From: a virus
Direction: 5' to 3' (one strand)
IMG/VR virus record: IMGVR_UViG_3300028840_006907
Location: 32,001 to 96,000 of that record
Length of the DNA: 64,000 nt
The notes beneath the pieces are model-generated. The model ran no database searches. It was not told the origin of the DNA and saw nothing but the letters and a program-made list of their open reading frames with translations. A program made the translations under genes and the position numbers. Positions 31,839-64,000 of the stretch are shown here, one piece after another. Position 1 is the first letter of the stretch, and each line of letters starts with the position of its first letter.

Positions 31839-32441
31839 ATGGAACAAGAGATGTTACATGGAATTAATATCATGGAATTCGGGAATACTATTCAGATAGC
31901 TGGTATTATCATGAATAGCGATAGTATGTCTTATTTGATCCCGTTGCCCGATGATGATATCTTGGAAGCAAAGAATTTCCCACTTGATACTGATCAGTGG
32001 AAGAAATTTCTCCGGCAAACAGATCTACTCGAAACGGAAGTTCTTGCCCAAGACGGGGATGGCTTTAAAAAGGCCATACTTCGTAAGAGTGCCCGTCAAG
32101 TTGATTCAAAGATATCTTGGGTAGTCTTTAAACGGGATGGCTATATGTGCCGTTACTGTGGCCGTGATGACGTACCACTTACTGTTGACCATTTGGTGCT
32201 CTGGGAAGATGGTGGTCCAACCATTGAAGAGAATTTGCTTTCAAGTTGTAAAAATTGCAATAAGAAGCGTGGAAGTATGCAGTATGCTGATTGGTTGAAA
32301 TCACAGCGATACAGAAATGTATCGGAAAATCTGTCTGAGGAAATAAAGAGAGCAAATGAAGCTCTTATCTCAACATTAGATGCTATTCCTCGAAAGTTAC
32401 ATATTCCATCACGTGGAGGGAAGAAAAAGAAAAAAAGATAA
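31839..32441 (+). CDS. HNH endonuclease
   Basis: CRYCG ... TVDHLV ... N ... CKNCN arrangement typical of HNH nucleases. Confidence 0.7.
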   Translation: MEQEMLHGINIMEFGNTIQIAGIIMNSDSMSYLIPLPDDDILEAKNFPLDTDQWKKFLRQTDLLETEVLAQDGDGFKKAILRKSARQVDSKISWVVFKRDGYMCRYCGRDDVPLTVDHLVLWEDGGPTIEENLLSSCKNCNKKRGSMQYADWLKSQRYRNVSENLSEEIKRANEALISTLDAIPRKLHIPSRGGKKKKKR

Positions 32442-38923: not shown

Positions 38924-39682
38924 TTGGAGACATCTGTGAAGTATAGCGTACTTGTACCCTACTATAAACGCCTAGGGCACCTACATAATACCTTTATTTC
39001 CTTTCTACACCATTATTCAGATAGAAATGATTATGAGGTTGTCATAGCAGAAGATTATAAAAATGTCCAGAATAAAAAAGACCATGACGGTCTATCAGAA
39101 ACCATTGAGAAATTCCGTGAAAAAATACCGATAATTCATTTAACTCTTTCTATGGAAACCTGGAATCCAGCTCATGGTTTTAATGAAGCTGCAAAGTGGG
39201 CTTCTGGTGAATATTTCGTTGTAACCAATCCAGAATGTTTCCATCAAGTGAACATACTGGCTGGACTCGATAAAGAATTTGAAGAAGACCCCAATGTCTA
39301 TGTTGTATGTGGTTGTATGAATTATGTCCGTTGTAATTTTTTTATTAAAAACTTTAATGATCTAAATGGAAAATTTCAGAGATGGTACCAACACTCAATA
39401 CATAGAGCAGCCCACTATCATTTCTGTTCAGCTATTTCAAAACAGAATTGGGTAAAAATAGGAGGATTCGATGAAGACTTTGCTATGGGTATAGCCTATG
39501 ATGATGTCGATTTTAAATTAAGCATTCAAAAAGCCAAGATACCCTTTCATATCCGGGATGACCTTCTTACTATACATATTGACCATGGTTCCTTCCCATC
39601 TCCTCCAAATGCTCAGAAATTAGTTAATCGAAATAGAATCACCTATCAAAGAAAATGGGAAGGAAGTAATGAATCTTACTAG
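38924..39682 (+). CDS. putative family-2 (GT-A) glycosyltransferase
   Basis: N-terminal YSVLVPYY and GGFDEDFAMGIAYDDVDF segments resemble GT2 signatures; start codon uncertain (TTG 38924 or GTG 38936). Confidence 0.5.
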   Translation: METSVKYSVLVPYYKRLGHLHNTFISFLHHYSDRNDYEVVIAEDYKNVQNKKDHDGLSETIEKFREKIPIIHLTLSMETWNPAHGFNEAAKWASGEYFVVTNPECFHQVNILAGLDKEFEEDPNVYVVCGCMNYVRCNFFIKNFNDLNGKFQRWYQHSIHRAAHYHFCSAISKQNWVKIGGFDEDFAMGIAYDDVDFKLSIQKAKIPFHIRDDLLTIHIDHGSFPSPPNAQKLVNRNRITYQRKWEGSNESY

Positions 39683-41762
39683 TTATACCGCAGCCGACAG
39701 TATCCCGATAAAATTGATTAAGAACTTTAAATTGTTAAAGTCCATGACAACAAAAGGAGTCATCTTACCAATCCATGTCCAGTTCATACCCACAAATAGA
39801 TGTAACATGAAATGTGGATTTTGTAGCTGTGCTGAAGATGACAGAAAAACAGAAATGTCCCTTAAAAATGCTAAGAAGATCATCAGAAAATTAAAAAAAC
39901 TCGGTACTCAATCCGTAACCATCACCGGAGGAGGAGAACCACTCCTTTATCCTCATCTCCAAGAATTGTTTTCTCTGTTTAAAGATGCCGGGATAAAAAT
40001 CGGTTTTGTTACCAATGGCCTCTTATTAGGTAAATGTACCTATGAAGATGTAACCTGGTGTCGGATTTCTAATTCTGATGAAAGAAAAATGGACATGGAC
40101 TATTATCACACAATAGCTTATGCTGTTGAAGATAACCCAAACGTGGACTGGGCCTTTAGTCATGTCGTTTCTCCAAAACCAAATATCTCCGAAATAAAAC
40201 GGATCATAGAATTTGCCAATCTCCATGATTTTACCCATGTCCGATTAGTAGCTGATCTATTGAATTATAAAGAAGTAGATTTAATGCAGTTAAAAATCAC
40301 TCTTCGAGATGAAAATGTCGATGATGATAAAGTCATCTATCAAAGTAGAAATACCCCGCTCAGAGGCGGAGACTGTTATATATGCTATCTTAAACCCATG
40401 ATAGGGGCTGACTGTAATGTGTACGCTTGTTGTTTAGAGGCTAATGAACCTGTATTAATCCAGAGAAATAACGAAAGGATGTATTTATCTATAAAGGATG
40501 TTGTTCCAGGGGATTATGCTTGTGAATATGGAAAGATTTTAAATGTGTTTCATAAAGAGGGTGAAGAAGGCTTGGAAATAGTTTTGCAAAATAATAGGAC
40601 TATTTATGTTTCGAAAGATCATCTTATGCTTAAATTGACAAACCCTGAAATTAGACATAAGAGAAAGAAGTTATTATCTGACTATGAATTAGATACAATA
40701 GAATCTTCTGAATTAAGAATTGGAGATTTACTTCCGGTCAAATATAAATATGATATTAGTGAAATAAAAGAAGATACTATATCTGAAGAAGAAGCAGAAT
40801 TAATAGGATATTATGTAGCTGAAGGTTGGTCCAATGAACGAACTTGTATAGTTGATAAAAAATATCCTACTAGAACTACCACTATAGGATTTATGCTAGG
40901 GAAAGAGTCAAGAGAATATATAAGAAGATTTGAAGAAATTTGTGATATTTTGAATCTAAATTTTTCTATGACTGAACGTAGAACTGGTATGCAGTATCAG
41001 ATAGGTGCACATAAACCCTACGATGACTTAATTGTACACTGTGGTAATAAAGCAGAATTAAAAAAGATCCCTCCTTTTATTTTAAACGGCTCTGATAAAA
41101 TAAAGTGGAAATTTATTCAAGGCTATTTTGGAGGTGACGGGAATTTTCAAACTCCTTCTAAAAGCTATGATGGTTTTAAAATGAGAATGAGTACTGTCAG
41201 TAGACAACTAGCTAATGATATAATTTATCTCTTTTGTACTTTAAATATTCATGCTTCTATGAGAGTTGAGAGACGTGAAGGAAAAATGATAATAGAAGGA
41301 AGAGAGGTAAATGCTAAAGATCGGTATCATATAAATATAGGGGGAGCCTATAATTTAGAAAAAGCCCCATTCCTAAATGTAATTCAAACAAAAGAAAGAA
41401 GTCCTAAAAGAGCCCTCGGTTTTTTGAAAGATGAGGATAAGGGCATTATGTTTGTACCAGTTAAAGAGATCAGAGAGAAAAAGTTAGGAAAATTAGTAGA
41501 CATTCAAGTGGAAGGTTCAAATAAATTTATATCTTCATTTGGTATAATAGTTCATAATTGTGGCGTCCAGTATGCTCTTAAAAAGCCTTCAAAGAATCTT
41601 CCTAAGAAACTGAGCCTAGGAAGTGCTTTTGATCTTGAGAAGATAATTGAGAACAGTAATAAGCCCCTGGACGGGAGCATGTGTTATCGATGCTATTATA
41701 GTAATTATAACAAGATACTAGGATCCATCCTGGATGATACCGATCATATGGAGTTTGTATGA
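39669..41762 (+). CDS. radical SAM enzyme interrupted by an intein
   Basis: CNMKCGFC (CxxxCxxC) and TGGGEPLL in N-extein; intein blocks described separately. Confidence 0.65.
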   Translation: MNLTSYTAADSIPIKLIKNFKLLKSMTTKGVILPIHVQFIPTNRCNMKCGFCSCAEDDRKTEMSLKNAKKIIRKLKKLGTQSVTITGGGEPLLYPHLQELFSLFKDAGIKIGFVTNGLLLGKCTYEDVTWCRISNSDERKMDMDYYHTIAYAVEDNPNVDWAFSHVVSPKPNISEIKRIIEFANLHDFTHVRLVADLLNYKEVDLMQLKITLRDENVDDDKVIYQSRNTPLRGGDCYICYLKPMIGADCNVYACCLEANEPVLIQRNNERMYLSIKDVVPGDYACEYGKILNVFHKEGEEGLEIVLQNNRTIYVSKDHLMLKLTNPEIRHKRKKLLSDYELDTIESSELRIGDLLPVKYKYDISEIKEDTISEEEAELIGYYVAEGWSNERTCIVDKKYPTRTTTIGFMLGKESREYIRRFEEICDILNLNFSMTERRTGMQYQIGAHKPYDDLIVHCGNKAELKKIPPFILNGSDKIKWKFIQGYFGGDGNFQTPSKSYDGFKMRMSTVSRQLANDIIYLFCTLNIHASMRVERREGKMIIEGREVNAKDRYHINIGGAYNLEKAPFLNVIQTKERSPKRALGFLKDEDKGIMFVPVKEIREKKLGKLVDIQVEGSNKFISSFGIIVHNCGVQYALKKPSKNLPKKLSLGSAFDLEKIIENSNKPLDGSMCYRCYYSNYNKILGSILDDTDHMEFV
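40431..41558 (+). mobile_element. intein with LAGLIDADG-type homing endonuclease domain (boundaries approximate; N-terminal Cys at 40428 or 40431)
   Basis: Starts CLEANEPVLI, ends GIIVHN followed by Cys; internal IGYYVAEGW and IQGYFGGDGNF motifs. Confidence 0.6.
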
Positions 41763-43983: not shown

Positions 43984-44019
43984 TCTAGGAATGTAAAGTA
44001 TTAGAGGATTATTAAGGGG

Positions 44020-47018
44020 AGGGAAACCCCGCTCAGATGCAGGGAAGAAGATTTCATTAAGAAGTTTTAGGAAGAGCCCCGCAGAGGAGGAACCTCGCAA
44101 GATGCGGGGAAAAGGAACTTCAGGCAATTGGCTGGGATTAGCCCCGCGAAGGTGCGGGGAAAACAGTTTCCATGAACTATATTAGGGAGAGCCCCGTTGA
44201 CACGGGGAAAAACCCGTCTTTACTTAGTGAGATCGAGGAAGGAACAGCCCCGTTGATACGGGGATAAAATAATATGACTTTTACGAATCCTCTAGGGACA
44301 GCCCTGCAGAGTGCAGGGAAAAGTAACGTCTGGGAATTGTTTAGGATTAGCCCCGCGAAGGTGCGGGGAAAGCCATAGATTTTATATTGACACAGGAAAA
44401 ACCCCGGTATAGTCCGGGGAAAAGTACGTAATCAAGATGTAAGAGGATTAGACCCGGCGAGTCCGGGAAAAGATTGGCCCAATCACTATTAAGTAGGGTG
44501 GGATAGCCCCGCAGAATGCAGGGAATAGATGCCTCACTTCATACCACTGCGTCAACCCCAGTAGAGTCCGGGGAACATGAGTGTAAATCTCTGTCGTAGG
44601 TTCAACCCCGGAGAGATCCAGGGGAAATGGGTACAACTTTGTGTACAAGGGGTAGCCCCGGAGAAATCCGAGGAAAATGAGTGTAAATCTGTGTTGAGGG
44701 TCCAGCCCCGCTCAGTGCAGGGAATATTAAGGGTCAAAACCGGTTGCCCCTGCGTCAACCCCGGTGAAGTCCGGGGAACATGAGTGTAAATCTCTGTGGT
44801 AGGATCAACCCCGCAGAGTGCAGGGAAAAATTGAACTTTTTAATCAACCCTGTAACAGCCCCGGAGTCAGTTTTGACAAGTCCGGGGGAATATCACTTCG
44901 TAAAGGAGTGGCTGTCAAGGGGGCAACCCCACAGAGATGTGGGGGAAAGTAAGCCAACGTTCCGGCATAGGCATAGCCCCTGAATTTACAGAGGGCAATT
45001 TTTCCAGTGTCCAGAAGAAGATGCAGGGAGAACCCCGGAAAGTCCAGGGGAAAATGTGTCACAGAACAACTCTTTGTGATCTCCAGGGTGAACCTCGCAG
45101 AGGTGCGGGGGAAAAGTGTCAATGAATACCAGTATGAGTCAGCCCCGGTATAGCCCGGGAATAATTACTTCTAGTCTGATAGAAGGTGCAACCCCGGGAA
45201 GTCCGGGGAAATCGGTCATAGCCATCTGGACCAGGAAGAACCCCGGTGAGATCCGGGGAAAAGGACGTTTAAATCCTGACATAGTAGCTAACTGAGGCGT
45301 AGCTCCGGTCGGGTCAGCCCTGCAGAGAGCAGGGAACAAACATAGGTAATAAATCGGCACGTGACAGCCCCGCAGAGAGGCGGGGATATATAGCGTGAGT
45401 TGCAGGGTAAGGTTCAACCCTTGTTTACCAAGGGAAAAATACCGGCAGATAAGAATTTAGGATGACCCCCGGTGAAAGTCCGGGGAAAATAATTAATACG
45501 CAAAACAGCAGGGCCAGTCCCGCGAGATGCAGGGAATGTTCAGCCAGTTTGTGTAATATTTCAGGAGACGGTGGTGCAACCCTGTCAAGGACAGGGATAT
45601 GCAACATCTGTGGCTCTACGAGGATCAGCCCCGGCAAGTCCGGGGAATTATCTTTTTATAAATGCCAAAAATAACAGTTGGGAGGGGCCAATTCCGCTGA
45701 TGCAGAAAGACATTTCATAATTAATATATTTATGGAAGAGCCCCGGTGAAATCCGGGGAAGTCAAGTAATTACAGCTCGCTGACCACTGGGGGTAGCCCC
45801 GGTAAGATCCGGGGAAAAGTTTGTTTTGAAACAAACGCTAGGAACAGCCCCGCTCAGGTGCGGGAGAATCACTGCATATTTGGTTAATGGCCCCCCTGAG
45901 TCAATCCCGCTCAGGTGCGGGGAAAATAAAGAGATAGACTAATTCAATATGCAGGAAGAACCCCGCTATATGCAGGAAAATTTAAAAAGTATGGATATCT
46001 CCTTGAGTCAACCCCGGAGATCCAGGGAAATGTAGGCACTCGTTGTCCTTTGTCGAAGTGTGAAGGGCAAACCTCGTTGATACGAGGAACAAATTTAGTT
46101 TTACTTTTGAATAAAAGTGGTCAAGCCCCGCTCAGGTGCAGGGAATAGATAAGTATACCGACGATAGCCAGGACAGCACCTGTGGTTTAGCCCTGCATGT
46201 GCAGGGAATAGTTGAGTTGAAGATTGAAGAAAAAGATAAAGTAGGGTCAGCTCTGCATGTGCAGAGAATAGCCTTTCTTCAAGCGTTGACTTGGGAGTAG
46301 GTGGGGATCAGCCCTGCACATGCAGGGAATAGAATGGTGAATCAAATTCCATTTTGTCAAAGAACGGCGACAGCCCTGCCAGTGCAGGGAATATGATTTT
46401 AACGATGGTAAAATTGGGAAGGGGTCAGCCCTGCACATGCAGGGAATAGTCGCTAGTTCAAATCCAATCGCCCCGACAGGATCAGCCCTGCATACGCAGG
46501 GAATAGAAAATACTGACGATAAACTAGCGATATGGGATCAGCCCTGCATACGCAGGGATATAGCTTGACGAATGGCCGTTTTAATGCCAGGAGTAACCCC
46601 GCTGCGAGGAATAGTCATTTCAAATATATAGGTAAAGCCCCGCGAAAGAGCGGGGGTATAATATGGCGGATTTTGTTCTATTGGTGGAATCCGGGCCATC
46701 CCCGTAGATTGACACGGGGAGATCTTTTAGAAATCTACCAAGGTGCCTTTCCGGAGTCATCCCCGTATATACGGGGGAGATTTCAATTCAGGGAATTTCG
46801 GTACAAAATTGGTCGGTTTATCCCCGTATACACGGGGAATATTGTTTCAATAGGGCATAGCAGATCTAGGATCGGGGAATCCCCGCAGGGGCGGGGAACA
46901 TCTCGGATTTATTAATCAAATTCAAACGTTTTTCGGGGAATCCCCGCAGGGGCGGGGAACATTGTTTTAAGAGGTGGTAGTTACCTCGTAGGGGAATCCC
47001 CGCAGGGGCGGGGAACAT
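44020..47018 (-). CRISPR. CRISPR array 1, roughly 50 repeat-like units, strongly heterogeneous; leader-proximal repeat ggggaatccccgcaggggcggggaacat (28 nt, 3 identical copies)
   Basis: Periodic hairpin repeats with 23-33 nt spacers; leader-proximal copies at 46874, 46935, 46991; minus-strand reading matches the I-E TTCCCCGC-N4-GCGGGGAT form. Confidence 0.8.
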
Positions 47019-47127
47019 ACTAAGTCATAATGCCATTCAAATCAAAGGTTTATAGGAACCCTAATTTTCTACCAAAGAAAAATGTACTTGTCATGTATAA
47101 ATGTCAAAGAGCGTCAGAGAGAAATCC
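47019..47127 (-). promoter_or_regulatory. CRISPR leader 1, with a ~55-bp core shared with leader 2
   Basis: accctaattttctaccaaa...tataaatgtcaaagagc shared with 54587..54683; contains TTGACA on minus strand. Confidence 0.5.
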
Positions 47128-49359
47128 CTAGTGGATATACCGAATCCATTCATATCGAATTTTCATCGTTTTATAAGGAGCTTTTTTTCTCCCTGGAAAT
47201 ATGTTTCCTTCAAAAAGGAAAAATTTTTGAACAATTTTAAATTCAGCGTTTGATGGTGTCAAGCTCTGTGGTGCATAATCCGAACGCCAGTAATTATTAC
47301 AATATATAAATTTTTCTTCTCTGTCTTTTTGTATAAGGCCCGGAAACACCACTAAAACTATCTTTTCGTTTTCAATAACAATATCCCCTTGATAAATAGC
47401 TATTTCTAAATCCAGACCATCCTGCTCTATCACACGAGCATATTTCGAGAGTTTCCCATCAATCTTTACTTTAGCTTTAGGGGGAATATCAAAAGTTATC
47501 CATTCACCTTTTATGTCCTTAATGCTTTGAATAGGTTTTTTAACTGGAATTTCTTGAAAGACATGATCTTGGTATTCTGCTTTTTTAAGGATTTCTCCAT
47601 CTTTTTCCATATTAAGCAATAAAGCCTTTTCCATGATGTCTTTAAGTTCATAGAGATCTTTTTCAGTTAAGGGCTCTTTTGTTCCGAATACGATGGAACC
47701 TACATTCTCTAATCGAGCGATTTTATCAAAACCCTGTTTCCGGACAAAGTCTATGGTAATATGTTCTATTTTTCTATTTCTTGAAAGTCTTATGATTCTT
47801 ACAAATTCAGTTTTAATTGTGTCTTTGAAATTATCAAAACTTAAATGATCTTCTACGTAGGGATGATACAAATCCGCTATAAGACTTAATAAAATTTCTA
47901 TGTCTTCAGGTTTATCCTGTTTACGGTTGTAATCATAAGCTTTAATAATTTCTTGTCTCATTTCCATTAATATATCAGGAGCCATTATTTCACTTAAACT
48001 GGTAGATCCTTTTTTGTCCCGATAAAAGGGAGCTGTTGGAAGTAAGGGAATCCTGATAGCAGCACAAAGTTCTGACATTACAATTGAGGTTAAGAACAAA
48101 TTCAATCTGTCTGAATATAATGCCCTGATATTATTACGTTCTTCTTTTTTAATAGGTGGAACATAAATGTATAACCATATTTTATCTTTTTTAGGGTAAC
48201 ATCTGAAAATACGAAACATTATTTGAGAGAAGGTCACCTGACTCTTTCCATAACTTGTATTATGTAAAACAGCAGCAGGAGGCCAATCATACCCTTCATA
48301 GAATATTCTGCAAGATACGGCGACCCAGTATTTTTTATGATTACGTCTCAATAACTCTCTATTTTTTTTCTGAGTTTCCGGTGTGACTAAATCCAGTACT
48401 TTGGACGCAGGATATATTTCGTGAATAGCTTTTAAATATTTTTTAAGGGTTCCTTCCTCTCTGAACCGGTTCCCCATGTCAGGTAATATGACAATGTGTC
48501 TTTGATCTTTGTGCTCTTTCATATATCTAATGATCTGAGTAAGGGGATCTTTCCTATAGTGAGTGAAACGGAAATTGAATTCTTTGATTTTTATGATTGA
48601 GAGATAGTCATTTAATGGGATAACCCATTTTTCAAAATGATGTTTATAAGCATTGGGGACTATTTCTCCTCTGTCTGTGCGGTGGTAAGTAGCTGTATAA
48701 AAATTTACGTTACAAGTAGGTTCATGGATGGTACATACATCTCTGACAAAATCACCCAAATGAGTGGAATCTAGTGGGGTTGATTTTGAATGATGGCATT
48801 CATCTACATGTACAGTTAAATTTCTAAGGGCTTTCTTTTTTTCATAGTTGGTTAATTTTTCCCAGGTCATGACAAACCCTCTATGGGTAGCTGTAGCAAT
48901 AGGGCCTGTTATATGTTTTTCATTGTACGGGTATTTTCGAGGATCTGCTAAAAGGAATTCTTTAAGTCCTTTAATGGATTGAGGGTTTTCACTATTGAAT
49001 TTATGTTCTTTTGGTACTTCCCACAATCTTACCATACCTTTATATTTGATTTTTATTTGTCTATTTTGGGATCTGCAGAAATTTTCACCTATTTCTATTG
49101 TTGGTGCGATAAAGATATGTTTTCGAGTATTTTTAGATATTATGATTTCATCCAGGGATATGCATACTGCTAAAAAAGTTTTGCCGACTCCCCCTGGTGC
49201 ATCAAAGATCATGTATCTGAATTTTTTCCCATATTCTTTTGCATTGCATTGCCAGCCAGAGGGTATCATGATCCCTGATTCAAGTTTTTTATTATAGGTA
49301 CCAAGGTCAACCGGTTCTATTTTAATAGATTGCTGGAAAAGCGGTAATAGCTTTTTCAT
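47128..49359 (-). CDS. cas3: SF2 DExH helicase, Cas3-like, without HD nuclease domain
   Basis: Motif I FDAPGGVGKT, motif II VDECHH, motif III TAT, motif VI-like QIMFRIFR; sits between cas6e and leader 1; GAGAGGA SD. Confidence 0.5.
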   Translation of the reverse strand: MKKLLPLFQQSIKIEPVDLGTYNKKLESGIMIPSGWQCNAKEYGKKFRYMIFDAPGGVGKTFLAVCISLDEIIISKNTRKHIFIAPTIEIGENFCRSQNRQIKIKYKGMVRLWEVPKEHKFNSENPQSIKGLKEFLLADPRKYPYNEKHITGPIATATHRGFVMTWEKLTNYEKKKALRNLTVHVDECHHSKSTPLDSTHLGDFVRDVCTIHEPTCNVNFYTATYHRTDRGEIVPNAYKHHFEKWVIPLNDYLSIIKIKEFNFRFTHYRKDPLTQIIRYMKEHKDQRHIVILPDMGNRFREEGTLKKYLKAIHEIYPASKVLDLVTPETQKKNRELLRRNHKKYWVAVSCRIFYEGYDWPPAAVLHNTSYGKSQVTFSQIMFRIFRCYPKKDKIWLYIYVPPIKKEERNNIRALYSDRLNLFLTSIVMSELCAAIRIPLLPTAPFYRDKKGSTSLSEIMAPDILMEMRQEIIKAYDYNRKQDKPEDIEILLSLIADLYHPYVEDHLSFDNFKDTIKTEFVRIIRLSRNRKIEHITIDFVRKQGFDKIARLENVGSIVFGTKEPLTEKDLYELKDIMEKALLLNMEKDGEILKKAEYQDHVFQEIPVKKPIQSIKDIKGEWITFDIPPKAKVKIDGKLSKYARVIEQDGLDLEIAIYQGDIVIENEKIVLVVFPGLIQKDREEKFIYCNNYWRSDYAPQSLTPSNAEFKIVQKFFLFEGNIFPGRKKAPYKTMKIRYEWIRYIH

Positions 49360-49444
49360 TGTCTTTTTCCTCTCAAATAAGTCCTGGAAAGCCTTTTCAG
49401 GGGCTTTCCAGGATTAATGTACTGTGTATTCTATATCAACACTT

Positions 49445-49628: not shown

Positions 49629-50273
49629 TTAATAAGATTTATACGGTGCAATAAGCATCATACCACATCCGAAACCTTTACTCTTACCAATTCCATTATA
49701 AATAGTATTCACAAAAAGATTTTTATTGACTACCTGAAGGACTCCTCGTAAATCAATACTGAAAAAAGATACAACTTTACCATCTTTTTTTTTGAATTTA
49801 CAGAATTGAAAAGATTGAACGGAATGCTTTTGAATCATATTTTTAAAACCGTAACTTTGGCCACGTTTCTGAAGCCAATTCTTTGAGGATTCGTGAGCAA
49901 TGAAATTCCAATTATAGGGTTCATCAAGAACTTTCATTTCATTTGCCAGATCCGTCATGATTGAAACCTTTTTCCTGGTTTTCAATTTACAAACTTCGGC
50001 ATTGAGTCTGAGATCGTATTGAAGAAATATTCCAGATTTTAAATTATTTAAATCGAATACTTTTGTTTGTGTAGTGTATTCGTCCTCTGGAGGATTTGGT
50101 TTCTTTTTTGATATGATATAAAGTTCACCATTATAGAGATAATAAAGGAAATCTCTTACCCTGTTAGATCTTTGATCACCAAAAAATTCCCAGACTTTTT
50201 GATGAAGCTCATATATACCTTCGGTGGGAGAATATCTTCTCAAGCTGTCACTGTAAATTTTACTCAGAAACAT
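49629..50273 (-). CDS. cas6e: Cas6e (CasE) crRNA endoribonuclease
   Basis: MFLSKIYSD..YELHQKVWEFF..RDFLYY and C-terminal GIGKSKGFGCGMM match recollected E. coli CasE; start moved to ATG 50273. Confidence 0.75.
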   Translation of the reverse strand: MFLSKIYSDSLRRYSPTEGIYELHQKVWEFFGDQRSNRVRDFLYYLYNGELYIISKKKPNPPEDEYTTQTKVFDLNNLKSGIFLQYDLRLNAEVCKLKTRKKVSIMTDLANEMKVLDEPYNWNFIAHESSKNWLQKRGQSYGFKNMIQKHSVQSFQFCKFKKKDGKVVSFFSIDLRGVLQVVNKNLFVNTIYNGIGKSKGFGCGMMLIAPYKSY

Positions 50274-50910
50274 TCGATACCTCCTTCCATCCCATATACT
50301 CAATTCGGGATCGGTATTGTTTGGGACCGGTTACCTGATCAAAACGTTGATTGCTTTTTACTATTTTGATACTGGTATCGGTACCTTCCCAAAATATTCG
50401 GTTCTTTTCACGCCCTTTAAGACTACCATTAAGAAATTCAGGAAGAGAGTACTGTTCAAACGCCTCTGAGAGGCTCTCAGCCTTAACGATCTTAGGATCG
50501 GGTGGTATGTCATAGGAACAGCATTTCCTTCCAAGAAAGGGGGTATAGATGGGCCTATTAAGGGCTTCCATTATTTTCTTCAAAGTATAGGGACAGTTTT
50601 CATTCTCCCATATACATACGGTAAAGATGGCATTGACTAGGTAAAATCTATTCGAGACAATTCCTGGTCCGACTCTGACAATATGGAAATCTTTTAGAAT
50701 AGTACCAGGATTATCTTCCCTACAGGCAAATCCTAGTTGGGCAATCTGAGTTAATTCTTTCACCATTTCTCTTGAGACTCCAAGAGAAGCAGCGATTAAC
50801 CCGCTTACGCCAGATTTGGTAGGGTGATCATCTGTCTTTCGGGTATTACCCTGAAGGGGGAGACCCCAGGCGGATAGAGTACCCGAAAGAAGGAATAATA
50901 AATAATTCAT
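50260..50910 (-). CDS. cas5e: Cas5e (CasD)
   Basis: LSGTLSAWGLP, PTKSGVSGLIAASLG, YTPFLGRKCC match recollected E. coli CasD; AGGAG SD. Confidence 0.75.
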   Translation of the reverse strand: MNYLLFLLSGTLSAWGLPLQGNTRKTDDHPTKSGVSGLIAASLGVSREMVKELTQIAQLGFACREDNPGTILKDFHIVRVGPGIVSNRFYLVNAIFTVCIWENENCPYTLKKIMEALNRPIYTPFLGRKCCSYDIPPDPKIVKAESLSEAFEQYSLPEFLNGSLKGREKNRIFWEGTDTSIKIVKSNQRFDQVTGPKQYRSRIEYMGWKEVSNVSE

Positions 50911-50933: not shown

Positions 50934-52019
50934 TTAGAAATCGATGAATTTAATAAGTTCGTTAAGTGATCCTTCTTTTGTGAGTACATTCAAGATCCTA
51001 TAATCCATTTCATGGTAACATGAATCAAAACTACTTTTCATGTCAAGAAGGGCTTTGACAGCATTTTCCATAACCGCAGGACCTTTAATAGGAGTATGGA
51101 AGGCTTGACAGAGACTTCGTGGGGCAGTTGGAGCTTTTTCGATCATAACGAATGCTGGCCATGTTTGACTATCAGCACATCTGTTTTTATTAGCTGAGGG
51201 GGATGAAGTGGTTAATACTTCGACTATCTGTCGGATGGTTTTGATAGCTAGTTCTTTATTACCTTGAAGATTTTTCGTTAAGAGCTTGGAATTGATTACA
51301 AAGAAACTATAATAGACACCCTGGGTAAAATAGAAATTATCTAGGTGACCTGAACCTTTGGTTCCTTCTAATCCAAGGTTATCGGTAGCTGTAAAATAGT
51401 CGGTTTGGACAGATCCTATATCATTGACAGTAAAAGCGAAATTTGAGGACAGTGAAGCTTCAACATCATATTGGGGCAGTTTTGCAATCATGCGACCGGT
51501 AAGGGCTGTTCTGATTCCTGTATTTTCTTTTAAAAAGAAGAATTCTTGATCAGTGGGTTTATGCCCCTCAATAATTTTGTCAATCAGTTCTTCAATATGT
51601 TGTCTTTCGCTCGGTTGAATTTTAATGGTTTCGGTTTTAAGAAGATCAACCTTTTTTTTCTTTTTCTTTGTATTTTTATCATCTTCTTTTTCAGTGTGCT
51701 TTTTGATATCAACAAAAGTACCAATAAATTTAAATGCGTATTCTTCAGCTTTTTTAGGTGATATTCCACCATCAATTAATCTTTTCTCGACATATTTTCC
51801 AATAAGAGGAGTCTGAAGACCTATATCGATTTCGCACCTTTCAAATAGAGCCTTGTTTAAATCATATTTTCGATTTTGTGAAGACGAATAACCTCGGTTG
51901 GTATCATTAAGTTTCATTGTTTTAGGACGTCCGTCCTGGCCTCGGTTTATGCTAGATACAGCTACACCAGTGAGAAGGTGAATTAACCAGTAGGGGTCTT
52001 TAATAATAGTTTTAGACAT
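50934..52019 (-). CDS. cas7e: Cas7e (CasC) backbone subunit
   Basis: SINRGQDG, SSSQNRK, ALTGRM, FTATDNLGLEGTKGSGHLD match recollected E. coli CasC. Confidence 0.8.
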   Translation of the reverse strand: MSKTIIKDPYWLIHLLTGVAVSSINRGQDGRPKTMKLNDTNRGYSSSQNRKYDLNKALFERCEIDIGLQTPLIGKYVEKRLIDGGISPKKAEEYAFKFIGTFVDIKKHTEKEDDKNTKKKKKKVDLLKTETIKIQPSERQHIEELIDKIIEGHKPTDQEFFFLKENTGIRTALTGRMIAKLPQYDVEASLSSNFAFTVNDIGSVQTDYFTATDNLGLEGTKGSGHLDNFYFTQGVYYSFFVINSKLLTKNLQGNKELAIKTIRQIVEVLTTSSPSANKNRCADSQTWPAFVMIEKAPTAPRSLCQAFHTPIKGPAVMENAVKALLDMKSSFDSCYHEMDYRILNVLTKEGSLNELIKFIDF

Positions 52020-52045: not shown

Positions 52046-53989
52046 TTATATGTTATTTGAATATTCTCTTTCCCAGTAGAACTTGACATCTTTGCTCCAG
52101 TGGGCATACCCTTCCATGAAACTGATGATGTTAAATCCTTCCATTCGAGAAACAACATCAGCAAATACTTTCCAGTTTTTTTGTATATCCGTTTTATTGA
52201 AACTCATCATTTCGTCAACATGTCGGCGGTTAATTTTTTGAGAACCCATTTGGGCACCGAAAGATTGAGAAAAATCCAGATCCTTAGCTTTAAAAACAAT
52301 TAGTAGAAGAGGTACGAAAAGAGTCTTCATATCTTCTGATCTTAAAGCAGGGAAATGCATAGACATTTCTAAAATAAAATTCAAATAAAGGTCTTCATGT
52401 TTTAAGATATCGATGTCAAAACATCGGGTAAATACCCTATGTTTTTCTGTATTTCTAATAGTCCCGTACCAGGACAGGAATGGTTTGGTAAAGACCTGGT
52501 TAAAATGAGGTAGGTTTAATTTCCTGTATTCGATATGGGCGAAATTCTCATATTCTAATGGTTGTAGTTTAAGAGGTTTAACAACTTTTTTATTTAAGGT
52601 TTCGATAAATTGTTCCTTAAAATATTTCTGTAAACCTCTCTTTTCAGTACCTACATTTTTTTCAAATGTATCGAAAGCTTTAACTACCATCTTTTCCAAC
52701 CATTTTTCGATATTATGATTCTTGAGAACTTCATAGAAGTATTCTTCAGTTTCTGTCAGAAATTCGTGAAATATTAAAGGTTCGGTTTTATCAGTTCCCC
52801 AGAACTTTCTTATATAATTACAGGTATACCATCCTATAAGATATGAGTGTTCTCTGATATTTAAAGTAAACGCACTATCTTTATAGAGTTCTTCTGGGAT
52901 ATCGAATTTATTTTCCTCCCATCCAAAGAGTTTGGCTTTAGCCATATTATAACCGAAAGTCCATAATCCGAAATCAGTTATTCCAAGATATTCTCGGTTC
53001 TCCATGAAATGACTCACCACTAAAGCTGGAGTTAATTTTTTAGCTGGTAGTAGATAGGTCACAAGATCGAGATGGCTGGTAAAGTCCAGGGGTTTCCGGA
53101 AACCTGTTTCTTTGCCTTTTATAATGGGTGAAAGGATATGACGTGGTTTGACATAACAGTTACCATAATTCCTCGTTTTTATCTTTCTAACCATTAATTT
53201 GGAATGATTGCCACAGATAGTACATGATTCATCAAATTTATCAAAGATAAGATGAATACGTAGAGGCATTTCCCAGAGCGGGTAATAAGGATTCATCTCA
53301 TCCAGGGAAACAGTAGCTTTGTTTTTACTATCAACGGTATCACTAAGCCATGGGAGTGTTACACCTTTTGGATTTCCTCCGAATTCAAACATGGTCTTTT
53401 TAATAATAACATTAGACCATATTGTTTCCCATAACGTGGAACCGGTAATAATAGTGGTAAGAGAACCATTGGCACCGGCTGTTATCGAAGTACGGTATCC
53501 TTGGCCTCCCATAATGGCACTGAGTTGATTAAGATAAAGGGCAATTGTAGCACAGGATTGGCAAAAAGTATGTATCTTTGCTTTTTGGAAGAAATCTTTA
53601 CCAGCTTTAATTGTCGCTGTCCCTGGAGTATCAAAGAGGAGATTACCAACATTTACGATTCTTTCAAGGTCCTGTGGCCGTTTATCCTGTAAAAAACGAG
53701 GACCTTTGCCATCTAGTTCAAAGAGTTTTGGTTTAAGTTTTTCTAGGATGGCTTTTTGGTTTGGTGCTTTTTTGAATAGTTTTTTCCATTCTTTCTTACT
53801 TGTAGGAGCAAGATAAGTGTTGAAAAAACCTATGAGAAGCCGTACACCTACAGCATTGAAATCGGGTCTACCGAAATCGAGAGCTATTATAGGGTTATTA
53901 GGTTTTGAAGTTATTTTGTAGGGTGGAATGTTTTCCCTGGTACCGTCTTTTCGGATGACGGGGATCCAAGGGTCCTTAATTACATTCAT
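52046..53989 (-). CDS. cas8e: Cas8e (Cse1/CasA) large subunit with C-terminal extension, possibly fused Cse2/Cas11
   Basis: N-terminal MNVIKDPWIPV, CQSCATIALYLNQ, ESCTICG match recollected E. coli CasA; 647 aa vs about 500 in CasA; GGAGGT SD. Confidence 0.8.
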   Translation of the reverse strand: MNVIKDPWIPVIRKDGTRENIPPYKITSKPNNPIIALDFGRPDFNAVGVRLLIGFFNTYLAPTSKKEWKKLFKKAPNQKAILEKLKPKLFELDGKGPRFLQDKRPQDLERIVNVGNLLFDTPGTATIKAGKDFFQKAKIHTFCQSCATIALYLNQLSAIMGGQGYRTSITAGANGSLTTIITGSTLWETIWSNVIIKKTMFEFGGNPKGVTLPWLSDTVDSKNKATVSLDEMNPYYPLWEMPLRIHLIFDKFDESCTICGNHSKLMVRKIKTRNYGNCYVKPRHILSPIIKGKETGFRKPLDFTSHLDLVTYLLPAKKLTPALVVSHFMENREYLGITDFGLWTFGYNMAKAKLFGWEENKFDIPEELYKDSAFTLNIREHSYLIGWYTCNYIRKFWGTDKTEPLIFHEFLTETEEYFYEVLKNHNIEKWLEKMVVKAFDTFEKNVGTEKRGLQKYFKEQFIETLNKKVVKPLKLQPLEYENFAHIEYRKLNLPHFNQVFTKPFLSWYGTIRNTEKHRVFTRCFDIDILKHEDLYLNFILEMSMHFPALRSEDMKTLFVPLLLIVFKAKDLDFSQSFGAQMGSQKINRRHVDEMMSFNKTDIQKNWKVFADVVSRMEGFNIISFMEGYAHWSKDVKFYWEREYSNNI

Positions 53990-54264: not shown

Positions 54265-54586
54265 GACAGCCCCGGTAAAGTCCAGGGAAATAAAAATTAG
54301 TGATAATTCGGGAATCAGCAGGAGGAGAGCATCAGCCCTGCGTATGCGGGGAATAGTGTTATCGTCTTACAGGATGTAAAGCAGAGACAGCCCCGCGTAT
54401 GCGGGGAATAGAAATTAATACATCTCATAAAATCTAGCATCAGCCCCGCGTATGCGGGGAATAGTTATTTATCTATACTTCCTACAACTCCCATAACGCA
54501 TCAGCCCCGCGTATGCGGGGAATAGCTCGTTGGTTTTCCCATTCCACAAAAGTTCAACGCATCAGCCCCGCGTATGCGGGGAATAG
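54265..54586 (-). CRISPR. CRISPR array 2: 6 repeats (distal one degenerate), repeat gcatcagccccgcgtatgcggggaatag, spacers 25-33 nt
   Basis: Repeat copies at about 54265, 54329, 54385, 54437, 54498, 54559; 61-bp period for the three leader-proximal units. Confidence 0.85.
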
Positions 54587-54683
54587 ACTATAATATAATT
54601 AGTTGAAAATCAGAGAGTTACAAAGACCCTAATTTTCTACCAAAAAAAGTACTTGCCGTTTATAAATGTCAAAGAGCTTATCT
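54587..54683 (-). promoter_or_regulatory. CRISPR leader 2 with the conserved core
   Basis: Shares ~55-bp core with 47019..47127. Confidence 0.5.
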
Positions 54684-59032: not shown

Positions 59033-59322
59033 AATGCCTTCTTTCTTCTTTTTCGTCTATGTTCTAAAAGTATTTTTCCCATTTCATAATTTGTGATTTC
59101 TTTGGCACCCATTTCAATAGCTCTTTTTCTTCGGCTTTCTACCAAATCGAAATGAATAAAACCGGTTCTACTTTTTTGTATCCAGTTTTTTTTCATTCCA
59201 ATCTTTTCTGCAAATTCGAGTAATTCTTTAATACTAATATCAGAAAACATGTGACAGTTTTTCACATATCTTCCACGAAGTTTCCAAAGGTTATCTTTTA
59301 ATTCATCTACATATATTGTCAT
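59029..59322 (-). CDS. DUF4031-like protein
   Basis: MTIYVD...CHMFSD...HFDL pattern recalled from DUF4031; unverified. Confidence 0.4.
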   Translation of the reverse strand: MTIYVDELKDNLWKLRGRYVKNCHMFSDISIKELLEFAEKIGMKKNWIQKSRTGFIHFDLVESRRKRAIEMGAKEITNYEMGKILLEHRRKRRKKAL

Positions 59323-59849
59323 GGTAATGTTAATCCGAATTTGTCAAAAATTCCTATGATTGCTTCAGCATTACCCATAGCATCATCTAGTGGATTATGG
59401 GTATGTTTTGTTTTTCGAAACTTCTTTTTCCAGTTCCTTTGAGCGTTGAATTTTTTTACAAGCCCACTATATAGATCCCCGATTCTCCTGGCACTATGTC
59501 CAAAAGGATTGTTATTACAAAAATGCCATAGATAATAATTTATGAATTGCCAGTCGAAAACGGGGTTATCCGAAATGAATACAATTCCTTGTTCTTTTTC
59601 ATTTATATTTTTTAACCATTGGTGAAATTTTTCTATTACTTTTTTGGGTGGAGGGAATTTTTTAACTTCTTTATATGAGAATCCTGAGACAACTAGAGCT
59701 GATTCGATAAATTTATTTGTTATAGGGCGTAATTGACTATAAAAAGTCCTGTTTAATTCTGGCTCTACAACTACCGCTCCGAAACAGACCATGGAATAAT
59801 CGCCGGGGCATGGACCGTCAGCTTCAATATCTACTGAGATAAGTTTCAT
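59319..59849 (-). CDS. DEDDh-family 3-prime to 5-prime exonuclease (DnaQ/RNase T-like)
   Basis: Exo I VDIEADG, Exo II NPVFDWQF, Exo III HNPLDDA. Confidence 0.6.
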   Translation of the reverse strand: MKLISVDIEADGPCPGDYSMVCFGAVVVEPELNRTFYSQLRPITNKFIESALVVSGFSYKEVKKFPPPKKVIEKFHQWLKNINEKEQGIVFISDNPVFDWQFINYYLWHFCNNNPFGHSARRIGDLYSGLVKKFNAQRNWKKKFRKTKHTHNPLDDAMGNAEAIIGIFDKFGLTLP

Positions 59850-63316: not shown

Positions 63317-64000
63317 TTATTCCTTAAAATAAAATTTAGATTTTAAATTATCGTAAGCACTCCAATTACCTTCAATAATACGATTAGTATATATAGTACT
63401 TAGATTGTATTCAGAGTCGATTATATCAGCTTTAGATAAAAGTATAGCTTCAGGAGTCATCGGGACTACTGCAGCCCCTAAATCCAGAGAACCGTGATGA
63501 CTTAATATTAAATGACCTAATATTTTTTTCATTCGGTTTCTTTCTTCCGGAGGAGCTTCTAATGCGTTTATGATTGGTATAATATTAGTATAACTTAAAT
63601 TGAGATGACTATGCAATCGTCCTATATCAGTCATTTCAATAGTCAAGTCATATGTATAGGAAAACATTTTTCCGTGATCATGAAGAAAAGCTCCCATGCA
63701 AATGATAGAAGGATCTATTGGATAAATATAACAGAAAGAGGAACAGATCTTCGTTACACATAAAGTATGCTCTAATAGACCGTGTAGATAAGCGTGATGG
63801 ACGTTACCCTTTCCTCCAGGGCACATTTTAAATTTATGCACAAATGTTTCATTATTTTTAAATTTATCCCAGAGATCTCTCATATATTTATTTTTAACTT
63901 TATCATCCATTATTTGAACTAGTTCAACCCACATTTCATCGGGATCATGTGGTGAAGTAGGAAGGAAATCTACAGGATTATAAGGATTTGTTTCTTCAAT
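63317..64000 (-). CDS. HD-domain protein, 5-prime end outside window
   Basis: NVHHAYLH, AFLHDHGK, LSHHG, KADIID; reading frame stays open upstream of the track start at 63934 to the window edge. Confidence 0.55.
   Translation of the reverse strand: MEETNPYNPVDFLPTSPHDPDEMWVELVQIMDDKVKNKYMRDLWDKFKNNETFVHKFKMCPGGKGNVHHAYLHGLLEHTLCVTKICSSFCYIYPIDPSIICMGAFLHDHGKMFSYTYDLTIEMTDIGRLHSHLNLSYTNIIPIINALEAPPEERNRMKKILGHLILSHHGSLDLGAAVVPMTPEAILLSKADIIDSEYNLSTIYTNRIIEGNWSAYDNLKSKFYFKE

Follow-up and report, generated by a model that had tools for sequence, protein, structure and literature searches.

A predicted SF2 translocase distinct from Cas3 is linked to type I-E Cascade genes in huge phages

Class 1 CRISPR systems that lack Cas3 and carry an alternative helicase on a mobile element are, as a general idea, already known. 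Type IV-A systems use CasDinG for nuclease-independent repression (PMC11519345, PMC10450177), and Al-Shayeb et al. described in 2020 a type I-C variant of huge phages 'with a helicase protein instead of Cas3' (PMC7162821). Helicases have been acquired by CRISPR systems repeatedly and convergently, DinG and RecD being examples (PMC11656645). The rare metagenomic variants I-E2 (Cas5-HNH), I-F4 (Cas8-HNH) and I-E3 (Cas11-PD-(D/E)xK) are derived from types I-E or I-F (PMC10910872, PMC12669027), and I-E2 and I-F4 typically lack Cas3; in these variants a nuclease fused to a Cascade subunit takes over from Cas3 or supplements it, and there is no substitute helicase. Here we describe a locus in a 64,000-nucleotide (nt) stretch of viral DNA, positions 32,001 to 96,000 of IMG/VR virus record IMGVR_UViG_3300028840_006907 (the whole stretch is hereafter called the window), in which four type I-E Cascade genes are accompanied by the gene for a superfamily 2 (SF2) helicase of 743 amino acids (aa) and by a CRISPR array. 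In contrast to the fused-nuclease variants, this locus has kept a motor and encodes no nuclease. We favor, at about an even chance of being right, the reading that it specifies a Cas3-less, I-E-derived effector of huge phages, in which a non-Cas3 motor provides nuclease-independent interference that is convergent with that of type IV-A CasDinG.

The locus resembles the canonical I-E locus of E. coli (cas3-casABCDE-cas1-cas2) in that Cas8e, Cas7e, Cas5e and Cas6e are encoded in the same order, the repeats are hairpins of ~29 nt and the array lies downstream. The helicase gene, the Cascade genes and the array are all on the minus strand, which corrects an earlier note:

52046..53989, minus strand: cas8e (casA/cse1), 647 aa; PF09481 at E = 4.6e-48 over aa 2-375
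50934..52019, minus strand: cas7e (casC), 361 aa; PF09344 at 1.1e-52 and PADLOC Cas7e at 2.5e-53
50260..50910, minus strand: cas5e (casD), 216 aa; TIGR01868 at 1.7e-35, above cut-off, and PADLOC Cas5e at 6e-39
49629..50303, minus strand: cas6e (casE/cse3); TIGR01907 at 3.9e-34, above cut-off, and PF08798 at 5.9e-32
47128..49359, minus strand: SF2 'DECH-box' helicase/translocase without a nuclease domain, 743 aa, ATG at 49359
43990..47019, minus strand, as the cas genes: main CRISPR array, ~3 kb, with type I-E-like hairpin repeats

The four Cascade genes belong to type I-E without ambiguity (Pfam, NCBIfam and PADLOC, with E values from 1e-26 to 1e-55); Cas7e, at 155.9, is below the strict NCBIfam 'exception' cut-off of 178 and well above the Pfam cut-off. 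The locus differs from the canonical one in lacking cas3, cas11 (casB), cas1 and cas2, in having an unrelated helicase in the cas1-cas2 slot, in a Cas8e that exceeds E. coli CasA by ~150 aa and in the heterogeneity of its array repeats. No cas1, cas2, cas3, cas4 or cas11 gene was found within 10 kb (precomputed Pfam annotation) or among the larger open reading frames (ORFs) of the window. The original prediction had described the protein as a helicase in the Cas3 position that occupies the slot in which I-E loci normally carry cas1-cas2. The slot was correctly recognized, as the gene lies between cas6e and the array, where E. coli has cas1-cas2; the Cas3 position has to be given up, because cas3 of E. 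coli sits upstream of casA.

With type IV-A the locus shares a class 1 CRISPR RNA (crRNA) complex without adaptation genes or nuclease, a dedicated SF2 helicase that is not Cas3, and its location on a mobile element. It has neither the DinG/XPD-type helicase nor the Csf1-Csf2-Csf3 effector of type IV-A, and nuclease independence, a property of type IV-A interference, is here a prediction from the gene content. The huge-phage I-C variant likewise has a type I effector without Cas1, Cas2 and Cas3, accompanied by a helicase in the locus; it is I-C-like, has no Cas6 and carries a Cas5d-type protein, whereas the window system is I-E with Cas6e. Motif searches of the supplementary GenBank files of that study (PMC7162821) recovered no member of the clade to which the window helicase belongs. 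The searchable text of the 2025 classification, which includes I-E2 (Cas5-HNH), I-E3 (Cas11-PD-(D/E)xK), I-E5 (a CRISPR-associated transposon, CAST) and a RecD-associated type IV variant, contains no I-E system with a non-Cas3 helicase (PMC12669027), and full-text literature searches returned no description of a helicase-linked I-E system. What appears to be new is this family of helicases, its partnership with I-E Cascade and the adaptor domain at the C-terminus of the members closest to the window protein.

In 11 of the 11 distinct metagenomic loci that were inspected, the helicase gene comes after cas6e, either immediately or behind a single ~200-aa gene; these loci are the window (identical to L001/L002), L003, L035, L004, L005, L006, L036, L025, L026, L027 and L030 (identical to L031). 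The linked loci have the gene order cas8e-cas7e-cas5e-cas6e, helicase, CRISPR array, with frequent overlaps of start and stop codons, and an array on the same strand follows the helicase wherever the contig continues. Identity to the window helicase is 59% in L003, 55% in L035, 33-37% in L004, L005, L006 and L036, and 27% in L030, and the operon partners have diverged in parallel (Cas8e 37-42%, Cas7e 40-44%, helicase 33-37% identity). The flanks vary among several loci: L004 and L005 have a CCA-adding enzyme and winged helix-turn-helix (wHTH) regulators there, and L030 has genes for an integrase, radical SAM and UbiA. By contrast with the linked loci, 17 family members outside the clade (L007-L024 and L028) have no Cascade gene within ~10 kb. 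In a rough neighbor-joining tree without support values, the Cascade-linked members form one clade of ~25 representatives and the unlinked members all fall outside it, which suggests a single capture event. At the level of gene order, these comparisons show linkage of the helicase clade to Cascade and array to be conserved and clade-specific, and the helicase was probably captured once, by an I-E Cascade operon without cas3, cas1, cas2 and cas11. The clade was not found in 185,579 GTDB species genomes, and the source contigs of its members reach 388-512 kb; the system therefore appears to be specific to huge phages.

This linkage bears on the possibility, which we consider improbable, that the protein is an ordinary replication or recombination helicase that happens to lie beside the locus, or one that services it through R-loop removal, Hef/FANCM-like recycling of Cascade or maintenance of the array. 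The wider family is one of jumbo-phage 'DNA helicases': gp100, the 'DNA helicase' of the 309-kb Tunturiibacter phage Tunturi_5, is a family member at 8e-35 and has replication genes such as those for ligase and thymidylate kinase as neighbors. Hef and FANCM, which are branch-point and R-loop translocases, are among the structural neighbors of the window protein, and part of the flanking synteny is common to the phages. A bystander or servicing role fits poorly with an adjacency that holds in every inspected locus down to 27% identity while the flanks differ, with gene overlaps within the operon, with an extra domain that sets the members closest to the window protein apart from the other family proteins and with the monophyly of the linked members in the rough tree.

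Which family the helicase belongs to was addressed with profile, sequence and structure searches. The Cas3 core profile TIGR01587, for which the cut-off is 102.45 bits, matched it over aa 50-191 only and scored 13.8 bits (E = 0.023), and the PADLOC Cas3 profile also gave 13.8 bits. ResIII (8.9e-7) was the sole Pfam match above threshold, and PHROG 16, 'DNA helicase', matched at 3.3e-8 and was also matched by 53 of 60 family members. When 1.84 billion cluster representatives were searched exhaustively with HMMER, 416 relatives were recovered at E<=1e-3, of which 79 reached E<=1e-30; most of the relatives are 600-800 aa long and align over residues ~35-590. Relatives with known context are jumbo-phage proteins; apart from Tunturi_5 gp100 they come from IMG/VR contigs of 34-467 kb, and the relatives found in IMG/VR were distant and Cascade-free, with no close ones among them. 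When a profile of the 60 members was compared with all PDB sequences, archaeal XPB/Rad25 ranked first at 4e-13, followed by Hef at 4e-11, XPBII at 1e-10, and then RadD and RIG-I-like helicases; Cas3 reached 8e-5 and was covered at the P-loop alone. In hhalign comparisons, the clade profile aligned with E. coli Cas3 over 39 columns around motifs II-III, which is no better than with RadD (82 columns) or HsdR (125 columns). Foldseek searches with a model of the helicase placed no Cas3 among the best 50 matches.

The nearest solved relatives are therefore XPB, Hef and RIG-I-like proteins, and the nearest characterized relatives are duplex or branch-point translocases. Hef/FANCM, XPB/Rad25 and the RIG-I-like proteins give the best profile and structure matches to both RecA-like domains, and motif II of the window helicase is DECH, although identity to these translocases is only 12-16%. 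Neither the Hef nuclease, nor the XPB damage-recognition domain, nor the RIG-I C-terminal domain (CTD) and CARDs were detected in the window helicase, which, unlike that group, has a helical middle domain and an SH3-like C-terminal domain of its own. Judged by its sequence, the 743-aa protein is a DECH-box, XPB-Hef-RIG-I-like SF2 motor and not Cas3, and identity as Cas3 or Cas3', which the original prediction had implied, is ruled out by profile score, hhalign and structure comparison. The same prediction had named as its counter-case an unrelated phage replication helicase family with no Cas3 affinity; this is half borne out, as the protein does belong to a jumbo-phage helicase family without specific Cas3 affinity, but its own clade is dedicated to Cascade.

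These comparisons also bear on a split Cas3, in which a Cas3' helicase without its former HD domain would be served by a separate Cas3''. Split Cas3'/Cas3'' arrangements occur in some type I subtypes, and the original prediction had pointed to an HD protein ~14 kb away as a nuclease that might act in trans. Two genes upstream of the CRISPR locus are relevant to this and to the nuclease question more generally:

63317..63934, minus strand: HD-domain ORF, 205 aa, ATG start, complete
59319..59849, minus strand: stand-alone RNase T/DEDD-type exonuclease

The HD protein had been thought to run to the window edge, but the ORF is complete and not cut. Its best matches are to the HD domain of the 3'-5' exoribonuclease YhaM (NCBIfam, 1.5e-17; PDB entries for YhaM/Cbf1, 1e-15), far better than those to the cas3_HD (Cas3'') model (17.1 bits against a cut-off of 43.45, E = 0.004) and to PADLOC Cas3 (E = 3e-4). 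No homologue of the HD ORF was found in any related locus and no HD gene within 10 kb of the locus; among GenBank phages, homologues occur in small Firmicutes-phage and gut-virome records. The HD ORF was rejected as a trans-acting Cas3'', being YhaM-type and not co-occurring with related loci. Sub-threshold Cas3 matches of both the helicase and the HD protein are what speaks for a split Cas3. Set against the 13.8-bit profile score and 39-column alignment of the helicase, its closer resemblance to XPB, Hef and RIG-I-like structures, and the YhaM affinity and distribution of the HD protein, they leave this explanation highly improbable, and we regard it as largely refuted by the profile and structure comparisons.

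The motor itself is well preserved. Its length and N-terminus are kept in homologues, and its layout and principal motifs are as follows:

aa ~35-400, RecA-like core; aa ~400-600, helical domain; aa ~600-743, SH3/KOW-like beta domain
49177..49200, minus strand: Walker A (motif I) APGGVGKT, aa 54-61; G57, G59 and K60 invariant in 60 family members
48790..48804, minus strand: motif II DECHH, aa 186-190; D186, E187 and H189 invariant in 60 family members
47131..47562, minus strand: C-terminal beta-rich domain, aa 600-743, encoded by the 3' part of the helicase gene

In a nine-member sub-clade, C188 and H190 of motif II are invariant as well. Further SF2 motifs, likewise invariant across homologues, are Q37, TAT..R (aa 222-227), EGYDWPPA (aa 355-362) and Q379/R383/R386. 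The SF2 DExH ATPase motifs are complete, which shows the predicted ATPase motor to be intact; these motifs are generic to SF2 and not diagnostic of Cas3. The earlier placement of the SF2 motifs near the N-terminus is borne out by the position of Walker A.

No HD or other nuclease domain was detected in the helicase by Pfam, NCBIfam, PADLOC or PHROGs. Because only ~35 residues precede the helicase core, there is no space for an N-terminal HD domain, in agreement with the original prediction. Invariant His and Asp residues (H159, D186, H189, H190, D229, H288, D323, D358, H366 and D545) lie nearly all within the two RecA-like domains, and the conserved residues of the homologues include no conserved 'HD' pair, as had also been noted from the single sequence. 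The helical domain is common to part of the wider family. The C-terminal beta domain, in contrast, was present in only 9 of the 155 family proteins retrieved for domain comparison, all nine being the closest relatives of the window helicase. Its invariant residues are W, F, V, Y, L, P, I and K, with no D, E or H among them, and a separate AlphaFold2 (AF2) model of this domain has an SH3/KOW-like fold. A hidden nuclease in the C-terminal third is ruled out by this conservation pattern and by the model, and the domain is probably a docking or nucleic-acid-binding adaptor and not catalytic.

With no nuclease in the helicase and none elsewhere in the locus, we expect interference to be nuclease-independent. 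In the mechanism we propose, Cas6e would cut the array transcript, and Cas8e, Cas7e, Cas5e and Cas6e would assemble with crRNA and form an R-loop on matching DNA, as their family membership predicts. Once bound, the complex would take up the helicase, for which the clade-specific C-terminal domain of the helicase and the extended C-terminus of Cas8e are plausible points of contact, and the intact motifs of the helicase suggest that it would translocate along the target DNA in an ATP-driven manner. On the DNA of the host or of rival phages, RNA polymerase or replisomes could in this way be blocked or stripped, with silencing rather than cleavage as the predicted outcome; obstruction or stripping of polymerases is the mode established for type IV-A CasDinG (PMC11519345, PMC10450177). 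If this is true, type I Cascade, like type IV, could swap Cas3 for an unrelated motor, and the convergence would reach the best-studied subtype. For huge-phage biology it would offer a testable system for the use of CRISPR without DNA cutting, for example in silencing host genes or competing phages, and a nuclease-free translocase that docks on Cascade might serve as a programmable DNA motor or for stronger CRISPR interference (CRISPRi).

One step of this mechanism concerns the missing small subunit. No gene intervenes between cas8e and cas7e, either in the window or among its relatives, and none of these loci has a cas11 gene (for Cse2/CasB). In a PDB profile search, Cas8e matches E. coli CasA residues 1-397, and its C-terminal ~250 aa (52046-52850) are conserved and not covered by Cse1 profiles. 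We considered whether this extension is a fused Cas11 and found it to be without sequence support, as hhalign detected no similarity between the Cas8e C-terminus and E. coli CasB. It is possible that Cas11 is present as a structural fusion in Cas8e or as an internally translated small subunit.

The original prediction had offered two outcomes, target binding without degradation or a nuclease supplied in trans, and both are still apt, since no nuclease is encoded in the locus. According to the second, the main rival to our reading and one that we consider unlikely, the motor unwinds or reels in the target and hands it to an enzyme encoded elsewhere, so that the target is degraded as with Cas3; candidates are a phage nuclease, host RecBCD, host Cas3 or a ~200-aa partner protein. 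The gene for this partner is conserved between cas6e and the helicase gene, overlapping the latter and translationally coupled with it, in six sister loci; a ~110-aa ORF follows the helicase in three of them:

L004:9396-10004, L005:9405-10004, L006:9399-10004, L027:~2182-2784, L030:10001-10612 and L036:770-1396: the ~200-aa gene
L004:12289-12618, L005:12274-12606 and L006:12307-12639: ~110-aa ORF with two tandem helix-turn-helix (HTH)-like halves (...SHQQIAALRAH.TM...)

The ~200-aa protein is recognized by the motifs YLTLCG.Q, SEINQL, YYGVDRD, IYLDTT and FVNVMLNNP, and a word-indexed search of 5.8 billion sequences gave a family of 16 members. A homologue at L028:4370-4771, near a distant Cascade-free helicase, indicates that the gene may be an ancestral partner of the helicase. 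Neither Pfam nor PDB gave a match for its product, a candidate for the missing nuclease or for Cas11, and to the eye the conserved core of the protein resembles a Rossmann fold rather than a nuclease. The gene is dispensable: the window, L003 and L035 lack it, and in L025 and L026 a remnant of ~30 codons is left. The HTH-like ORF is likewise missing from the window, and L036 has a 105-aa ORF at the matching position. Degradation in trans also draws on the RNase T/DEDD exonuclease and the YhaM-type HD protein that the window does encode, neither of them conserved near related loci, and on the precedent of a type IV-A variant and type I variants that regained cleavage through HNH domains (PMC10910872). 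It is opposed by the fact that no nuclease gene is conserved beside the locus across relatives. As to a host enzyme, a repeat present in seven copies in the phage had no match in GTDB species-representative genomes, and no host I-E system could therefore be tied to the phage.

Several observations weigh against nuclease-independent interference by a Cascade-recruited motor. No protospacer was found when two spacers were compared with IMG/VR, the whole array with GenBank phages, and all spacers with the window and the fetched loci. The scan covers 64 kb of a genome of ~390-470 kb, and cas3 or a cooperating nuclease could sit elsewhere. A Cascade without Cas11 would be unusual, and stable R-loop formation is a prediction. 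A physical association of helicase and Cascade is a prediction from gene linkage, and the model of the whole helicase is of moderate quality, with a predicted local distance difference test (pLDDT) value of 67. Several of the phages share wider synteny, for instance a DUF488 gene upstream of cas8e in the window and L006, and the adjacency may therefore partly be inherited genome order. Finally, a stem-loop stands between the helicase and the Cascade genes in the window, beside a short ORF:

49382..49413, minus strand: perfect 12-bp stem-loop (TCCTGGAAAGCC...GGCTTTCCAGGA), directly upstream of the helicase ribosome-binding site and start codon
49445..49600, minus strand: ORF of 51 aa in the interval from cas6e to the helicase gene; its Walker A is degenerate (LPGGTGMS)

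The stem-loop may be an attenuator or a processing site that uncouples helicase from Cascade expression. The 51-aa ORF takes the place that the ~200-aa partner gene has in sister loci. Pfam gave no match for it, and a search of a small local database aligned it with the N-terminal part of family member P0008 (39% identity, E = 2.7e-4). We regard it as a probable remnant of the start of a helicase, left by a rearrangement in which the partner gene was lost.

Beyond nuclease-independent interference by the window locus, we advance more tentatively, and at distinctly less than an even chance, the broader claim that this CRISPR-associated helicase family, undescribed so far, marks out a separate I-E-derived variant that occurs in huge phages alone, with motor-driven silencing instead of cleavage. 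As parts of that one tentative claim, the variant would combine Cascade without Cas11, a DECH-box translocase and an optional ~200-aa partner, with an SH3-like adaptor in the closest members; it would have no Cas1, Cas2, Cas3 or any nuclease, and it would add one more helicase to those that class 1 systems have taken up independently, the earlier ones being Cas3, DinG and RecD. Several of the loci carry unusually long, drifted arrays.

The arrays were compared on this last point. We oriented the window array, in which ~29-nt repeats with an I-E-type 3' stem-loop are present, against the regular array of L026 and against the E. coli I-E repeat. The main array contains at least 34 perfect hairpins and further imperfect ones, in repeats such as ATATTCCCCGTGTATACGGGGATAAACC. 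Its unit spacing of 48-62 nt leaves spacers of only ~20-33 nt. The repeats drift along the array through the stems CCCCGC/GCGGGG, CCCTGC/GCAGGG, CCCCGG/CCGGGG and CCCCGT/ACGGGG, with pairing kept by compensatory changes. The same pattern recurs in the distant relatives L035 (5017-7440) and L030 (13110-16061), and the arrays of L025, L026 and L006 are regular, with 61-nt units. Drift of this kind may have arisen over a long period in which Cas1-Cas2 was lacking and selection maintained processing by Cas6e. So long and drifted an array is unusual for a phage locus without cas1-cas2.

Two further elements on the minus strand were noted around the operon:

54328..54590, minus strand: mini-array of ~5 repeats (CTATTCCCCGCATACGCGGGGCTG), immediately upstream of cas8e
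47234..47262, minus strand: promoter-like TTGACA-17-TAAAAT (11/12 consensus positions), within the 3' end of the helicase gene and facing the array leader

The mini-array has a repeat variant unlike the repeats at the start of the main array. The promoter-like site is a consensus match only, and the total of such sites in the region equals chance expectation.

Among the neighboring genes, a radical SAM protein of 697 aa encoded at 39669-41762 of the window, on the plus strand, contains an intein with a LAGLIDADG domain (precomputed Pfam annotation); its L003 orthologue is 322 aa long, which suggests that the intein is absent there. An AcrVA2-like gene (PF26125) lies at L030:17985-18839, ~5 kb downstream of the Cascade-helicase-array locus of that phage.

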